In this document: piece after piece, positions 5,236 through 55,798 of the stretch
How positions within the stretch are numbered: the first letter of the stretch is position 1
How the letters are laid out: each line of letters begins with the position of its first letter
Source of the DNA: Scyliorhinus canicula
Lineage: Eukaryota
Reading direction: 5' to 3'
Length of the DNA stretch: 64,000 nucleotides
Assembly: GCF_902713615.1 (NCBI RefSeq)
Contig: NC_052156.1
Location: 111,267,120-111,331,119, forward strand
Notes under the pieces: model-generated
Told to the model about the DNA's origin: nothing
What the model saw: the letters and a program-made list of their open reading frames with translations, nothing else
Database searches by the model: none
Position numbers and translations under genes: made by a program

Positions 5236-5810
5236 ATACTAAATATCCATGGATTGACAGAGGGGAATGTGCAACAAGACCCAGGTGTCCTTGTGCACCA
5301 GTTGCTGAAGGTAAGCATGCAGGTGCTGCAGGCAGAGAAGAAGGCAAATGGTATGTTGTCCTTCATAGCAAGAGGATTCAAGTACAGTAGCAGGGATGTC
5401 CTGCTACAGTTATATGGTGAGACCACACCTGAAATACTGTGTGAAGTTTAGGCCTCCTTGAGGAAGGATATTCTTGCTATGGAGGGAGTGCAGTGAAGGT
5501 TGACCAGGCTGATTCCTGGGATGGTGGGGACTGGCATATGAGGAGAGATTGAGTCGGTTTGGATTATATATAATGTAGTCGTGAAAAATGAGGAGGTAGC
5601 TCATAGAAACCTGTAAAATTCTAACAGGACTATGCCGTAGATGCAGGAAGGATGTTCCCGATGACAGGAAGTTAAGAACTAAGGATTACAGTCTAAGGAT
5701 ACAGGGTAAACCAATTAGGACTGGCATCAGAAGATCTTTCTTCACCCAGAGAGTGGTGAGCCTGTGGAATTTTCTACCACAGAAAGTAGTCGATGCCAAA
5801 ACATTGTATT
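5236..5810 (+). mobile_element. Degenerate CR1 3' fragment (others at ~836-2029, 9478-9766, 26820-27003, 33650-34140, 39900-40370, 60060-61600)
   Basis: KKANGMLSFIARG, RTRGHRL and TQRVV-type remnants. Confidence 0.75.
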
Positions 5811-8536: not shown

Positions 8537-9922
8537 TAAGCTTCATGACAAATCAGTAATTCTGTCTCGATCCGAGACCCCAACAGCAGACCCTGTGGTA
8601 TCACCGACATCAACTTGCCTATTTCTACATTTAAACGTACGCATGTGAAATTGCTGTCACTTTTGTCCACTAATGACAGGGTGTACTGACAGCTTCCCCA
8701 TCATTACAAATGCAAATTGTGGGTCTTAATTATACACATTGTAGGTTTCTACTGGAAATAGCAGCTCAAAGATAATAATCAAAGAGATTAGCTGCAACAA
8801 TTTTTGTGCATTCATTCTAGCTGCTTCAACCTTAATAGACAGCGTGAACATTGTGAGCAGTTTATCGCTGGAGCCAAGCATAGACTGAGCAATGAAAAAT
8901 ATAAAAGTTCAAATCTCACCATGCCAAATGGGTGAAACTGGATTTCGTAGATCTGTCAAATTTTGCGGCTAGTGGTAGGCATTGCCTGAGAAGTAAAAAG
9001 CCAGCTGGTTCAAATATACTTCAGGGAAAGTAATTTATTATTCCTCTTGCTCCGGTCTACATGTGACTCCAATCTCACACTATGTGGCTGATCCTTAATT
9101 CTCTTGGGGAAACTAGGAACAGGCAATGAATACTGCCTTACCACTTTTGTCCTCACCAAAAGGAACAATGAGGAAAAATGTATTGGATTCCACATTAAAC
9201 AAGTAAAGAAAATTCTCAGTTACCAATGTCAGTTTATTCTTCACTATACCAGCATATGTCTTGGGCATCGATGTGTAGAGTGCTTCTGGGATTGGTGTTT
9301 TGACTCACTCAGCATTAAAAAGACACATGATCCAATTTAAGGCTCTCCACACACTGCATGCAACAGCAGTTTGCATTTATAAACCACAAGGCACTTCACA
9401 GGAGCGTTATCAACTGACATTTGATGCTGAGGTAAACTAGGATAATATGGGAATGGAGTTGACCAAAAGCTTGGTCCTCAGACTGATTCCTGGGATGCTG
9501 AAATTGATGTGCAAGGAGAGATTGAGTCGGTTAAGATTATATTAGCTGGAGTTCATCTCATAGTAATCTATAAAATTCTAACATGACTAGACAATGTAGA
9601 AGCAAGAAGGGTGTTCACAATGGTAGGGATGTCCAGAACCAGGGGTCACCGTCTGAGGATACGGGGTGAACCATTTAGGACTGAGGTGAAGAGAAATTTC
9701 TGCACACAGAGAGTAGTAAACTGTGGAATTCGCTACAACAGGAAACAGTTTAGATCAAAACATTGTGGGCGGGATTCTCCGGCCACGCCCACCTGGCAAC
9801 TGGAAATTCTCGCCCAAGATCAATGGACCTTACTTGATCTGTGTCCTGCCCGTGGCGATCTTGTGGTGGGTGGGGCAGAAGAATTACTGATTGGGGAAAG
9901 ATTGGGGCATTATTCTGAAGTA

Positions 9923-50169: not shown

Positions 50170-50910
50170 CAATCAGGTTATACAGTATATGCAGGACCCT
50201 TAAGTATATTGACAGGCAAAGGGATCTGGGTGTACAGGTCCACAGATCACTGAATGTGTCAACCAACGCAGGTGGAGAAGGTTGTCAAGAAGGTATACAG
50301 CATGCTTACCTTCATTGGCCGGGCACCGAGTATAAAATGAGTAAGTCATGCTGCAGCTGTACAGAACCTTAGTCAGGACGCATGTGGAACATAGCATTCA
50401 ATTCTGGTATCCACATACCAGAAGGATGTGGAGACTTTGGAGAGGGTACGGAAGAGGTTTACCAGGGTGTTGCCTGGTATGGAGGGCATTAGCAGTGAGA
50501 AGAGGTTGGATAAACTTGGTTTGTTCTCACTGGAAGGACGGAAGTTGAGGGGCGACCTGATAGAAGTCTACAAAATTATGGAGGGGCATAGACAGAGTGG
50601 ATAGTCAGAAGATTTTTCCCAGACTGGAAGACTCAATTACTATGGGACATAGGTTTAAGGTGTGAGGAGAAAAGTTTAGAGGAGATTTGCAAGGGAAGAT
50701 TTTTTACACAGAGGGAAGTGGGCGCTGCCGGAGGAGGTGGTGGGAGCAGGTACGATAGTGATTTTTAAGGGGCGTCTTGACAAACACATAAATTGGATGG
50801 TAATAGAAGGATACAGACCCGGAAATGTAAAAAGTTTTAGATTGGACGGGCAGCATGGTCGGCGCAGGCTTGGAGGGCCGAAGGGCCTGTTCCTGTGCTG
50901 TGCTGTTTTT
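50170..50910 (+). mobile_element. Degenerate CR1 3' fragment
   Basis: QRDLGVQVHRSL, LQLYRTLVR; 3'UTR GAGGGCCGAAGGGCCTGT. Confidence 0.8.
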
Positions 50911-51488
50911 TGAAACCGCGAAGCCAGGGGAAACCCACGCAGACATGGGGAGAATGTGGAAACTCCACACACAGTTACCCAAGGCCAGAATTGAACCCGG
51001 GTCTCTGGTGCTATGAGGCAGCAGTGCTAACCACTCTGCTGTGTAGACCAATTTCCAACCATGGAGTTTAAATCTGGTGTTCAGCCTCTGAAGCTATTGT
51101 GGAGTGGAGAGACTAGCTCCTTCCGGATGTCACAACACTCTTTACGCTAATATGAGCTGGGACCTAATTAATTCCGGAATACAAGCTTGATTTACTTTTA
51201 AATGTGACATGAAACTGCTTCCGTCCTCTATGCAAACTTGTTCCGATTTGGAACAGGGTCACTTTAAGAATTCGATCACGTGATGTGCTGATGACATCAT
51301 CAGCAGCAGTTTGGGAGGGTGAACCGTCAGTCTATGCCAGCAGACTGTGTGCCAGCACCTTTCCAATAAAGCTTTGTTTCTTTGGTACATAGAACATAGA
51401 ACATAGAACATAGAACGATACAGCGCAGTACAGGCCCTTCGGCCCTCGATGTTGCACCGACATGGAAAAAATCTAAAGGCCATCTAAC

Positions 51489-54392
51489 CTACACTATGCC
51501 CTTATCATCCATATGCTTATCCAATAAATTTTTAAATGCCCTCAATGTTGGCATGTTCACTACTGTTGCAGGTAGGGCATTCCACGGCCTCACCACTCTT
51601 TGCGTAAAAAACCCACCTCTGACCTCTGTCCTATATCTATTACCCCTCAATTTAAGGCTATGTCCCCTCGTGCTAGCCACCTCCATCCGCGGGAGAAGGC
51701 TCTCGCTGTCCACCCTATCTAACCCTCTGATCATTTTGTATGCCTCTATTAAGTCACCTCTTAACCTTCTTCTCTCTAACGAAAACAACCTCAAGTCCAT
51801 CAGCCTTTCCTCATAAGATTTTCCCTCCATACCAGGCAACATCCTGGTAAATCTCCTCTGCACCCGTTCCAAAGCTTCCACGTCCTTCCTATAATGAGGC
51901 GACCAGAACTGTACGCAATACTCCAAATGCGGCCGTACTAGAGTTTTGTACAACTGCAACATGACCTCATGGCTCCGGAACTCAATCCCTCTACCAATAA
52001 AGGCCAACACACCATAGGCCTTCTTCACAACCCTATCAACCTGGGTGGCAACTTTCAGGGATCTATGTACATGGACACCGAGATCCCTCTGCTCATCCAC
52101 ACTACCAAGAATTTTACCATTAGCCAAATATTCCGCATTCCTGTTATTCTTTCCAAAGTGAATCACCTCACACTTCTCCACATTAAACTCCATTTGCCAC
52201 CTCTCAGCCCAGCTCTGCAGCTTATCTATGTCCCTCTGTAACCTGCAACATCCTTCCGCACTGTCTACAACTCCACCGACTTTAGTGTCGTCTGCAAATT
52301 TACTCACCCATCCTTCTGCGCCCTCCTCTAGGTCATTTATAAAAATGACAAACAGCAACGGCCCCAGAACAGATCCTTGTGGTACGCCACTCGTAACTGA
52401 ACTCCATTCTGAACATTTCCCATCAACTACCACTCTCTGTCTTCTTTCAACTAGCCAATTTCTGATCCACATCTCTAAATCACCCTCAATCCCCAGCCTC
52501 CGTATTTTCTGCAATAGACGACCGTGGGGAACCTTATCAAACGCTTTACTGAAATCCATATACACCACATCAACTGCTCTACCCTCGTCTACCTGTTCAG
52601 TCACCTTCTCAAAGAACTCGATAAGGTTTGTGAGGCATGACCTACCCTTCACAAAACCATGCTGACTGTCCCTAATCATATTATTCCTATCTAGATGATT
52701 ATAAATCGTATCTTTTATAATCCTCTCCAAGACTTTACCCACCACAGACGTTAGGCTCACCGGCCTATAGTTACCGGGGTTATCTCTACTCCCCTTCTTG
52801 AACAAAGGGACCACATTTGCTATCCTCCAGTCCTCTGGCACTATTCCTGTAGCCAATGATGACCTAAAAATCAAAGCCAAAGGCTCAGCAATCTCTTCCC
52901 TGGCTTCCCAGAGAATCCTAGGATAAATCCCATCCGGCCCCGGGGACTTATCTATTTTCACCTTGTCCAGAATTGCCAACACTTCTTCCCTACGCACCTC
53001 AATGCCATCTATTCTAATAGCCTGGGTCTCAGCATTCTCCTCCACAATATTATCTTTTTCTTGAGTGAATACTGACGAAAAGTATTCATTTAGTATCTCG
53101 CTTATCTCCTCAGCCTCCACACACAACTTCCCACCACTGTCCTTGACTGGCCCTACTCTTACCCTAGTCATTCTTTTATTCCTGACATACCTATAGAAAG
53201 CTTTTGGGTTTTCCTTGATCCTACCTGCCAAAGACTTCTCATGTCCCCTCCTTGCTCGTCTCAGCTCTCTCTTTAGATCCTTCCTCGCTTCCTTGTAAAT
53301 ATCAAGCGCCCCAACTGAAACTTCACGCCTCATCTTCACATAGGCCTCCTTCTTCCTCTTAACAAGAGATTCCACTTCTTTGGTAAACCACGGTTCCCTC
53401 GCTCGACCCCTTCCTCCCTGCCTGACTGGTACGTACTTATCAAGAACATGCAATAGCTGTTCCTTGAACAAGCTCCACATATCCAGTGTGCCCAACCCTT
53501 GCAGCCTACTTCTCCAACCAACACATCCTAAGTCATGTCTAATGGCATCATAATTGCCCTTCCCCCAGCTATAACTCTTGCCCTGCGGGGTATACTTATC
53601 CCTTTCCATCACTAACGTAAAGGTCACCGAATTGTGGTCACTGTTTCCAAAGTGCTCACCTACCTCCAGATCTAACACCTGGCCTGGTTCATTACCCAAA
53701 ACCAAATCCAATGTGGCCTCGCCTCTTGTTGGCCTGTCAACATATTGTGTCAGGAAACCCTCCTGCACACATTGTACAAAGAATGACCCATCTAATGTAC
53801 TCGAACTATATCTTTTCCAGTCAATATTTGGAAAGTTAAAGTCTCCCATAACAACTACCCTGTTACTTTCGCTCTTTTCCAGAATCATCTTCGCCATCCT
53901 TTCCTCTACATCCCTAGAACTATTAGGTGGCCTATAGAAAACTCCCAACAGGGTGACCTCTCCTTTCCTGTTTCTAACCTCAGCCCATACTACCTCAGAA
54001 GAAGAGTCCCCATCTAGCATCCTTTCCGCCACCGTAATACTGTCCTTGACTAGCAGCGCCACACCTCCCCCTCTTTTGCCCCCTTCTCTGAGCTTACTAA
54101 AACACCTAAACCCCGGAACCTGCAACAACCATTCCTGTCCCTGCTCTATCCATGTCTCTGAAATGGCCACAACATCGAAGTCCCAGGTACCAACCCATGC
54201 TGCCAGTTCCCCTACCTTATTTCGTATACTCCTGGCATTGAAGTAGACACACTTCAAACCACCTACCCGATCACTGGCACCCTCCTGCGAAGTCAAATCT
54301 GTGCTCCTGACCCCTATACTCTCAATCTCCCGTACCCTAAAACTACAATCCAGGTTCCCATGCCCCTGCTGAATTAGTTTAAACCCCCCCAA
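51489..54392 (-). CDS. CR1 ORF2p: APE endonuclease + reverse transcriptase; no upstream AUG, probably entered by -1 frameshift
   Basis: 967-codon open frame. APE motifs YFNARS, AISETW, YRPP, MGDFN, LDLVL, SDHN; RT motifs YRPVSLTS, QHGF, DFSKAFD, GVPQGSVLGP, FADD. Track start codon is TTG; the first ATG is codon 125. Confidence 0.93.
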   Translation of the reverse strand: MGGFKLIQQGHGNLDCSFRVREIESIGVRSTDLTSQEGASDRVGGLKCVYFNARSIRNKVGELAAWVGTWDFDVVAISETWIEQGQEWLLQVPGFRCFSKLREGGKRGGGVALLVKDSITVAERMLDGDSSSEVVWAEVRNRKGEVTLLGVFYRPPNSSRDVEERMAKMILEKSESNRVVVMGDFNFPNIDWKRYSSSTLDGSFFVQCVQEGFLTQYVDRPTRGEATLDLVLGNEPGQVLDLEVGEHFGNSDHNSVTFTLVMERDKYTPQGKSYSWGKGNYDAIRHDLGCVGWRSRLQGLGTLDMWSLFKEQLLHVLDKYVPVRQGGRGRAREPWFTKEVESLVKRKKEAYVKMRREVSVGALDIYKEARKDLKRELRRARRGHEKSLAGRIKENPKAFYRYVRNKRMTRVRVGPVKDSGGKLCVEAEEISEILNEYFSSVFTQEKDNIVEENAETQAIRIDGIEVRREEVLAILDKVKIDKSPGPDGIYPRILWEAREEIAEPLALIFRSSLATGIVPEDWRIANVVPLFKKGSRDNPGNYRPVSLTSVVGKVLERIIKDTIYNHLDRNNMIRDSQHGFVKGRSCLTNLIEFFEKVTEQVDEGRAVDVVYMDFSKAFDKVPHGRLLQKIRRLGIEGDLEMWIRNWLVERRQRVVVDGKCSEWSSVTSGVPQGSVLGPLLFVIFINDLEEGAEGWVSKFADDTKVGGVVDSAEGCCRLQRDIDKLQSWAERWQMEFNVEKCEVIHFGKNNRNAEYLANGKILGSVDEQRDLGVHVHRSLKVATQVDRVVKKAYGVLAFIGRGIEFRSHEVMLQLYKTLVRPHLEYCVQFWSPHYRKDVEALERVQRRFTRMLPGMEGKSYEERLMDLRLFSLERRRLRGDLIEAYKMIRGLDRVDSESLLPRMEVASTRGHSLKLRGNRYRTEVRGGFFTQRVVRPWNALPATVVNMPTLRAFKNLLDKHMDDKGIV

Positions 54393-55300
54393 AGAGCACT
54401 AACAAATCTCCCCCCCAGGATATTGGTGCCCCTCAGGTTCAGATGTAGACCATCCTGTCTATAGAGGTCCCACCTTCCCCAGAAAGAGCCCCAGTTATCC
54501 AGAAATCTGAATCCCTCCCGCCTGCACCATCCCTGTAGCCACGTGTTTAATTGCTCTCTCTCCCTATTCCTCATCTCACTATCACGTGGCACGGGCAACA
54601 ACCCAGAGATAACAACTCTGTTTGTTCTCGCTCTGAGCTTCCATCCTAGCTCCCTAAAGGCCTGCCTGACATCCTTGTCCCCTTTCCTACCTATGTCGTT
54701 AGTGCCAATGTGGACTACGACTTGGGGCTGCTCCCCCTCCCCCTTAAGGACCCGGAAAACACGATCCGAGACATCACGTACCCTTGCACCTGGGAGGCAA
54801 CATACCAAACGTGAGTCTCTCTCGCTCCCACAAAATCTCCTATCTGTGCCCCTGACTATTGAGTCCCCAATTACTAATGTTCTACTCCTTTCCCCCCTTC
54901 CCTTCTGAGCAACAGGGACAGACTCCGTGCCAGAGGCCCGTACCCCATGGCTTACCCCTGGTAAGTCGTCCCCCCCACAAGTATCCAAAACGGTATACTT
55001 GTTACTCAGGGGAACGACCGCAGGGGGTCCCTGCACTGACTGCTTCTTCCCAGTCCCTCTTACAGTTACCCATCTATCTCCAGTCTTTGGTGTAACTATT
55101 TCCCTGAAGCTCCTATCTATGACCCCCTCTGCCTCCCGAATGATCCGAAGTTCATCCAGCTCAAGCTCCAGGTCCCTAACACGGTTTTTGAGGAGCTGGA
55201 GTTGGGTGCACTTCCCACAGATGAAATCAGCAGGGACACTGACGGCGTCCCTCACCTCAAACATTCTGCAGGAGGAGCATTGTACTGCCTTCCCTGACAT
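54374..55300 (-). CDS. CR1 ORF1p: C4 zinc finger + leucine zipper + SGNH/GDSL esterase (308 aa from ATG)
   Basis: CSSC-x16-CGKC; heptad LQLLKNRVRDLELELDELRII; SGNH blocks LVIGDS, CCLPGA, HIGTND, DGLHLN. ATG at 55300 (preceded by an in-frame GTG). Confidence 0.92.
   Translation of the reverse strand: MSGKAVQCSSCRMFEVRDAVSVPADFICGKCTQLQLLKNRVRDLELELDELRIIREAEGVIDRSFREIVTPKTGDRWVTVRGTGKKQSVQGPPAVVPLSNKYTVLDTCGGDDLPGVSHGVRASGTESVPVAQKGRGERSRTLVIGDSIVRGTDRRFCGSERDSRLVCCLPGARVRDVSDRVFRVLKGEGEQPQVVVHIGTNDIGRKGDKDVRQAFRELGWKLRARTNRVVISGLLPVPRDSEMRNREREQLNTWLQGWCRREGFRFLDNWGSFWGRWDLYRQDGLHLNLRGTNILGGRFVSALWGGLN
54377..54383 (-). promoter_or_regulatory. Candidate -1 ribosomal frameshift slippery heptamer U_UUA_AAC at the ORF1/ORF2 junction
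   Basis: Minus strand reads TGG GGG GGT TTA AAC TAA in the ORF1 frame. The -1 frame TTT AAA CTA ATT CAG is ORF2. Confidence 0.7.
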
Positions 55301-55577
55301 CACCTCTAGATTTAAAAAAAAAACAAGAAAAAGAAAAAGGAAGAGTTTACCTGATATTACCTCAAACCCTGCTCCCGCTCAAAGGTAAGCAAATTTAAAG
55401 GCACTCACTCACCTTCACGACAGGCCCCTGCTCCCGCTTCCCAACCACCGTGGGGTGGGGGGGTTGGTTAGAGGAGGAGGTAGGGTGGGGGGGTTGGTTA
55501 GAGGAGGAGGTAGGGTGGGAAACACTCACGAAGTGTTTCGGGTTTAACTGTCACTTGCCAACAGCCTCTCCACAAAC

Positions 55578-55798
55578 CACCTTCAACTTAGGCTGACCGC
55601 ACTGCACGTATGCAAATTTCCCCAGAACAGCTGATCAGTAGCTCTGCTCTGCTGCCCTCTGCTGGATGATTGCCTTCACTCAAACTCCTCGGGTCCCCTT
55701 CGCAGATTCACCTTCAACTTAGGCTGACCGCACTGCACGTATGCAAATTTCCCCAGAACAGCTGATCAGTAGCTCTGCTCTGCTGCCCTCTGCTGGAT
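55578..55798 (-). repeat. Two identical 90-bp monomers (55578-55667, 55709-55798) in the CR1 5'UTR
   Basis: Direct repeat with period 131. Each copy has ATGCAAAT (55610-55617, 55741-55748) and CAGCTG. Confidence 0.9.

Follow-up and report, generated by a model that had tools for sequence, protein, structure and literature searches.

A conserved slippery heptamer at the ORF1/ORF2 junction of a Scyliorhinus canicula CR1 element, and the prediction of programmed -1 frameshifting

Introduction

How the second open reading frame (ORF2) of the long interspersed nuclear elements (LINEs) is translated has been called an open and important question (in part of PMC3894237), and elements of the CR1 group are described as the dominant retrotransposons of most vertebrates (in a passage of PMC13343379). 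The present analysis concerns a CR1-type LINE on the minus strand of a 64,000-nucleotide (nt) stretch of the Scyliorhinus canicula genome (contig NC_052156.1, positions 111,267,120 to 111,331,119; hereafter the window, to which all coordinates refer), and in particular the junction between its two ORFs, where comparative evidence points to programmed -1 ribosomal frameshifting as the probable means of producing ORF2. The closest described relatives are the vertebrate CR1 LINEs with an esterase-type ORF1 (PMC13343379; ZfL2-1 ORF1p, PDB 4C1B, PMC3905857); as in these, ORF1 comprises a zinc finger, a coiled coil and an SGNH esterase, ORF2 an apurinic/apyrimidinic endonuclease (APE) and a reverse transcriptase (RT), and the 3' tail consists of short repeats. 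The open literature searched, to which the primary CR1 papers of 1997-2003 and any passing suggestion in them do not belong, contains no report of frameshifting in CR1. The word for frameshifting has no match in four CR1 papers (PMC13343379, PMC4316615, PMC4120745, PMC3905857), and the first 300,000 of the 449,034 characters of the review PMC5009743 make no mention of CR1.

Other bicistronic LINE RNAs are known to be translated by restarting, SART1 by coupling at UAAUG and mammalian L1 by termination-reinitiation. One of the families compared below, family B, carries TAATG at the same place; in this clade, however, the start codon is not conserved, whereas the heptamer and the phase of the two frames are. 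For TRE5-A and TRE3-A of Dictyostelium, also APE-type elements lacking long terminal repeats (LTRs), a review states in part that a -1 frameshift is needed for ORF2 (PMC5911963), but the host is unrelated and ORF1 is of a different type. The -1 frameshift between ORF1a and ORF1b of coronaviruses uses the identical heptamer, U_UUA_AAC in infectious bronchitis virus (IBV), and likewise places a polymerase ORF in the -1 frame; sections of the review PMC5009743 rank this heptamer among the most shift-prone. In contrast to the coronavirus signal, neither pseudoknot nor stem was found here, the stop codon adjoins the heptamer, and the conserved downstream element is unstructured and 10 nt away. This arrangement resembles, in layout only, the -2/-1 frameshift in nsp2 of an arterivirus, PRRSV, which is stimulated by nsp1beta and PCBP; there, as parts of PMC4937337 describe, a 10-nt spacer separates the heptamer from two C-patches, to which PCBP and nsp1beta bind, and 21 nt suffice for the signal. 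In both layouts the slippery site is followed, after a 10-nt spacer, by a short unstructured motif whose two homopolymer patches lie within about 21 nt. The patches here are of G rather than C, the heptamer is different, and a binding protein is hypothetical.

The ORF1/ORF2 Junction

The LINE is full-length and uninterrupted (55798 to 51388, minus strand) and holds the junction of its two ORFs. ORF1 (54374..55300, minus; 308 amino acids) ends in GGT TTA AAC TAA, so that the heptamer T TTA AAC (54377..54383, minus), a predicted -1 shift site of the form X XXY YYZ, is phased in the zero frame with the stop codon TAA (54374..54376, minus) immediately 3' to it. The -1 frame across the site reads FKLIQQGHG and stays open for 962 codons beyond it, which with the 308 codons of ORF1 gives a predicted fusion of 1270 residues; from stop to stop this frame (51489..54398, minus) spans 969 amino acids. 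Its first ATG, at 54020, lies inside the endonuclease, downstream of the motifs YFNARS (codon 52), AISETW (codon 78) and GGGVALLV (codon 110). No in-frame AUG precedes the first endonuclease motif in the window's family, the nearest AUG (+15) being out of frame, and the window's junction reads TAATT, with ATT at +2.

The original prediction, made from the letters of the window alone, had described the same ORF1 end, the same phase, the same ORF2 frame and the same fusion length, and the reading of the frames confirms each of these. It had rightly placed the first AUG of ORF2 behind YFNARS and AISETW, but as codon 125; the correct number is 127 counted stop-to-stop, or 120 after the shift. A second run that it had pointed out, G GGG GGT, is discarded: it is not an X XXY YYZ site with A or U as Y. 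The canonical second site is G GGT TTA (54380..54386, minus), which overlaps the first and is confined to lineages with Gly before the final Leu (5/14). A -1 shift at U_UUA_AAC giving an ORF1-ORF2 fusion, its central proposal, is strongly supported by the comparisons that follow. Its argument that the lack of an AUG implies a frameshift is by itself too weak, because several related lineages carry an AUG in frame ahead of the endonuclease, four of them no more than 5 nt from the stop, and because reinitiation can use near-cognate codons (according to portions of PMC10275272). A single phased heptamer likewise proves little, because six phased heptamers occur in the two ORFs of the element. That the site carries weight beyond chance follows from its conservation at the level of codons and from the genome count of the pattern heptamer-N10-GGGGNNNGGG, with 25,243 matches against 465 for a reversed control, figures that count repeat copies and not independent events.

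Conservation of the Heptamer

Seven families (A-G) were found by searching the genome with diverged ORF1 proteins. Searches and fetches provided 159 loci, 156 of them distinct, out of 164 examined; being the best-scoring copies, they are biased toward young and intact ones, and the tally leaves out ten hand-picked fused copies and L205-L209. The heptamer is in phase in 154 of the 156; the two misses, L182 (TTG for TTA) and L185 (a broken end), both belong to the old family E. A downstream motif, GGGG-NNN-GGG, is exact in 143 of the 156. The window's own family is young and abundant: over the junction, its 40 top-scoring copies share an identity of 99% or more, and one junction pattern shared by families A and D has 4,768 matches in the genome. 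The list of genome matches also contains other types of junction, in which the spacers and the middle codons differ.

For deeper comparison, 14 lineages were aligned, eight from the genome and six from metagenomes, with linkers measured in 13 lineage representatives. All seven bases of the heptamer are invariant in 14/14, including bird-type copies in which synonymous sites are saturated. The last Leu of ORF1 is always TTA, the Asn always AAC, and the codon before them ends in T under several different amino acids; in the same alignment a single codon is kept at none of 24 other conserved ORF1 residues. Identity at four-fold sites between four deep groups is 0.09-0.47 for the pairs printed, which is near saturation. 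The chance of the heptamer's constancy is 0.0145 per independent lineage, and a hand calculation gives about 3e-6 for three independent contrasts. As judged from this alignment, the constraint on the heptamer acts on nucleotides, beyond what the protein needs.

The same pattern can be read from ORF1 proteins. Among 109 homologous proteins, 78 reach the end of ORF1: 54 end in LN, one in LNY (Callorhinchus), and two run on into the -1 frame as FKL. Of the remaining 21, 15 are distant homologues, mostly of teleost fish where a source is named, one ends in IN and five are truncated. Among the named homologues ending in LN are those of sharks, rays, frogs and a bird, and the closest named relatives of the window's ORF1 are those of sharks and rays. 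Eleven different amino acids precede LN; residues whose codons cannot end in T (E, K, Q, M and W) occupy that position in 1 of the 54, vs 32 of the 54 one position earlier. Two of the vertebrate-like CR1 ORF1 proteins, P0008 and P0075, are labelled as coming from Pseudomonas aeruginosa and Protopolystoma xenopodis, a likely case of contamination.

A scan of metagenomes returned 30 loci, of which seven reach an intact ORF1 end and all seven have the heptamer, six of them being bird-type by likeness to P0086. Of the others, L064 has the heptamer after an upstream indel, L084 has it with a mutated stop, L078 and L081 are distant elements that lack it, L090 is unrelated, and the remaining 18 break off short of the ORF1 end. 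Scans of the genome contigs and viral contigs collections gave no relatives. Matching the heptamer against the supplement of PMC13343379, a search in which misses are not countable, showed 22 rows, and 18 of them are ORF1/ORF2 junctions by eye, from alligator, crocodile, lizard, frog, coelacanth, bowfin, a halosaur, chimaera, rays and sharks, and the G motif lies at exactly 10 nt in six of these 18; the cells of the supplement hold 400 characters each, and most junctions fall outside them. The junction of family B matches a row labelled LINE/CR1.

The Linker and the Downstream G Motif

Between the shift site and the endonuclease lies a linker that is free of stops in the -1 frame (54258..54377, minus). 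Its length differs among lineages, with 80, 92, 119, 134, 137, 182, 185, 215 or 239 nt from stop to endonuclease, and its phase is constant: all 13 lineage representatives are 2 mod 3, which is the -1 phase. In the nine lineages counted, stops number 0 in the -1 frame vs 25 and 35 in the other two. The uncorrected ratio of nonsynonymous to synonymous differences (pN/pS) is 0.59-0.83 in four pairs of linkers and 1.19 in one poorly aligned pair, compared with 0.10-0.41 for the endonuclease. Selection on the amino acids of the linker was considered and is weak by this measure, a degree of constraint that fits what would be a flexible connector.

Downstream of the heptamer, a spacer fixed at 10 nt and variable in sequence (54367..54376, minus) leads to the conserved two-patch motif GGGG-NNN-GGG (54357..54366, minus), a candidate unstructured 3' stimulator. 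Counted from the heptamer, 14/14 lineages have G at +11 to +14, 13/14 have GGG at +18 to +20 and 14/14 have A at +22; the three middle bases vary, and so does the sequence of the spacer. Both glycine codons of the motif are GGG wherever they are present, and GGG makes up 31% of the Gly codons of ORF2. In family F, ORF1 ends in LNF, the stop having moved one codon further on, yet the heptamer is kept and the G motif stands at the same distance from it. A short unstructured motif behind a spacer of fixed length, about 10 nt, is the arterivirus type of signal. That the motif is stimulatory, as an unstructured downstream signal, is about an even bet on this evidence; that it acts through a bound protein, as the arterivirus analogy suggests, is less probable than that. 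If stimulatory, its fixed distance may mark it as a new kind of frameshift stimulator.

The original prediction had pointed to four downstream G-runs and short stems as possible G-quadruplex or hairpin stimulators. All four runs are present in the window's copy and only the first two are conserved; the third and fourth, and the stems, are not, and folding z-scores are unremarkable, so that neither kind of stimulator is upheld. A four-tract quadruplex is predicted in 2 of 10 lineages, the window's family not among them, and local hairpins are not conserved. The window's junction region folds no better than shuffled sequences (z 0.06). A long-range partner for the G motif was also sought in seven long copies and rejected, the best duplexes falling at different places or inside ORF1.

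Programmed -1 Frameshifting as the Preferred Interpretation

A phased X XXY YYZ heptamer, a -1 frame open from that site and conservation beyond protein need, all found here, are the marks of a -1 frameshift. From these, and from the want of any usable AUG in the window's family, we infer with a rough probability of 0.78 that ORF2 is made by programmed -1 ribosomal frameshifting at U_UUA_AAC, which would leave most of the product as free ORF1 protein and yield, beside it, the predicted 1270-residue ORF1-ORF2 fusion. In 4 of the 13 lineages, the window's included, no in-frame AUG stands before the first endonuclease motif. The slip itself is a well supported step: tRNA-Leu and tRNA-Asn would move from UUA AAC to UUU AAA, and reading would go on through LIQQGHG into the endonuclease. 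The ribosome may be made to pause by the adjacent stop, by the unstructured GGGG-NNN-GGG just outside the mRNA entry channel, or by both, rather than by a hairpin or pseudoknot, and the motif may be bound by a protein. By analogy with Gag-Pol, the shift would set the ratio of ORF1p to polymerase and tether the endonuclease and RT to the ORF1p multimer. A more tentative proposal, which we think doubtful but worth stating, is that vertebrate CR1 LINEs make their endonuclease and RT as a Gag-Pol-like fusion through a protein-triggered -1 frameshift. In this proposal GGGG-NNN-GGG, 10 nt after U_UUA_AAC, would be the docking site of a G-tract-binding protein, supplied by the host or, in a feedback, by ORF1p itself, and would mirror the arterivirus PCBP signal with G in place of C. 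If true, a chromosomal element would have kept a frameshift under protein control since the divergence of sharks and birds, and this frameshift would also be a host switch on retrotransposition.

Several observations weigh against frameshifting. The usual stimulator is a structure 5-9 nt from the site (as stated in part of PMC7618472), and no conserved RNA structure was detected 3' of the site in 10 lineages (folding z -1.24 to +1.32); no classical stem-loop or pseudoknot 5-9 nt downstream was found with ViennaRNA, which is blind to pseudoknots, and the purine-rich linkers have no conserved partner. The seven long copies share no downstream pairing partner. An in-frame AUG occurs at +2 or +5 in 4 of the 13 lineages (family B, with TAATG, and three bird-type copies), five further lineages have one farther downstream and before the endonuclease, and ATT occupies +2 in families A, D and G and +5 in family C. 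SART1 has the same TAATG stop-start and in addition requires RNA that lies downstream of its stop (in portions of PMC5972666 and PMC10275272). In families B, C and E, indels in the linker disrupt several copies. Finally, each family is represented in the alignment by one copy and the lineages are related, so the lineage counts overstate independence.

If frameshifting is correct, the ORF2 protein of CR1 does not occur free but as one portion of a fusion about 1270 residues long, annotations such as 'ORF2 without a start' and copies dismissed as 'frameshifted, dead' need revising, and regulators of frameshifting could act on CR1 elements. The 27-nt conserved cassette makes the question of ORF2 translation testable in one reporter experiment.

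Alternative Explanations

The main rival is termination-reinitiation, in which ribosomes would end translation at the ORF1 stop codon and begin anew at +2 or +5, on an AUG or on a near-cognate codon, yielding a free ORF2 protein, with the conserved bases serving as reinitiation signals. The start-like codons listed above speak for it: the in-frame AUG at +2 of family B belongs to the commonest junction type among the 100 matches listed, L063, L065 and L067 have one at +5, and ATT takes either place in families A, C, D and G. L1 ORF2 can be made without its AUG. SART1 offers a precedent in which UAAUG acts with a downstream element (parts of PMC3894237, PMC5972666 and PMC10275272), and reinitiation of the TURBS type (termination upstream ribosome-binding site) is described in the last of these as tolerating near-cognate starts. 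Reinitiation nevertheless leaves the exact, in-phase X XXY YYZ heptamer unexplained, and the start-like codon is not conserved: none is found at +2 or +5 in L061, L068 and L070, and family E has only GTA or TGG, with an out-of-frame AUG at +4. The AUG overlapping or adjoining the stop that typifies SART1 is replaced by TAATT in the window and is confined, at +2 or +5, to 4 of the 13 lineages. AUGs within the linkers number 16 in frame vs 18 in frame 0, and in family F the G motif tracks the heptamer and not the stop. We regard reinitiation as unlikely, at perhaps one chance in seven. A mixed case, frameshifting with some reinitiation in the AUG-bearing families, is possible. The abundant family B (L116-L140) combines the heptamer with a SART1-like TAATG and is a natural test case for frameshifting vs reinitiation.

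A correction at the RNA level, in which polymerase slippage on G7-T3-A3, splicing or an internal promoter yields an mRNA with ORF2 in frame or with a fresh start, is very improbable. The G7 run that precedes the heptamer in families A and D is prone to indels in the assembly (+1 in 7 and -1 in 5 among the 100 matches listed), and the 5' untranslated region (UTR) contains donor- and acceptor-like sequences. However, splicing and frequent polymerase slippage are disfavoured because RNA reads, likely sense and about 180-230 deep, cover the junction with no listed joint, no listed indel of at least 3% in the G run and no pile of starts; these reads are from one run (X24), the only one recorded as RNA, amount to about 1 in 100 of its reads, may derive from host pre-mRNA and pool many copies. 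The G7 run is also absent from families B, C, E, F and G and from bird-type copies, and an internal transcript of the window's family would find no AUG at which to start. Ten naturally fused copies were fetched (L141, L142 and L173-L180), their frames joined mostly by one extra base within the run of G or of T, and otherwise through small local changes; some are open for more than 1300 codons, and L177 and L178 share an identical fused junction. They were rejected as evidence for a working fusion: slips of +1 and of -1 are similar in number (7 and 5 of 100) and unlisted in RNA reads, as expected of ordinary slips or assembly errors. None of the families sampled is fixed as a fusion.

Several minor observations concern the same reads and region. 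The 5' UTR at 55412-55304 (minus) resembles a small intron, with a strong donor-like splice site and with a pyrimidine tract whose final AG closely precedes the ORF1 ATG; its joint is not among the RNA-read joints listed, where depth is low and reads are cut at a repeat. At 54382-54350 the contigs of three runs step back 33 bases, with 6 extra bases, across the heptamer, possibly from one copy with a duplicated junction or through an assembly artefact. A large pile of RNA reads of opposite direction at 54963-55347 is probably due to oligo-dT priming, on antisense transcripts, at an A-run by the ORF1 start.

The least probable alternative, that the bases are kept solely for the C-terminal Leu-Asn of ORF1 (each over 90% conserved, and Leu307 could add to the hydrophobic face that the last helix presents) and for Gly-x-Gly in the ORF2 frame, the heptamer being incidental, is largely refuted already by the one codon in 14/14 lineages vs 0/24 control columns, places a need on residues 306-308 that are predicted to be unstructured (pLDDT under 50) and outside the fold, whose last helix is 289-304, does not account for GGG at both motif glycines, and leaves ORF2 expression unexplained.

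Anatomy of the Element and Neighbouring Fragments

The 5' UTR (55301..55798, minus) contains two 89-nt repeats 131 nt apart and a C-rich 30-nt duplication (together at 55798-55580 and 55520-55455, minus), and the match extends up to 55798 in 31 of the 59 other family copies given. The duplication is missing in some reads and contigs. The ORF1 protein has a CX2CX16CX2C finger, a long predicted helix (29-69) that would form a coiled coil, and an SGNH esterase (residues 143-304; Pfam PF13472, E 8.6e-15), and matches the ORF1 protein of PDB 4C1B with E 1.1e-40. In ORF2, the endonuclease (53634..54245, minus; residues 52-255; PF03372, E 4.2e-20) is followed by the RT (52125..52793, minus; residues 536-758; PF00078, E 3.6e-36). 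The 3' UTR (51388..51488, minus) ends in four TTCTATG repeats. Short tandem 3' repeats, the lack of LTRs and a high interspersed copy number are all as in CR1, and the element is a CR1-type LINE with an esterase-type ORF1, an assignment made by domains and by junction likeness to LINE/CR1 rows. Truncated 3' fragments of other LINE RTs, 37-67% identical to the window's ORF2, lie at 32975-32130, 63901-63404, 50221-50793 and 5272-5806, with further such fragments in the same range of identity at 2038-1886, 58652-58563, 9557-9718 and 61001-60864.

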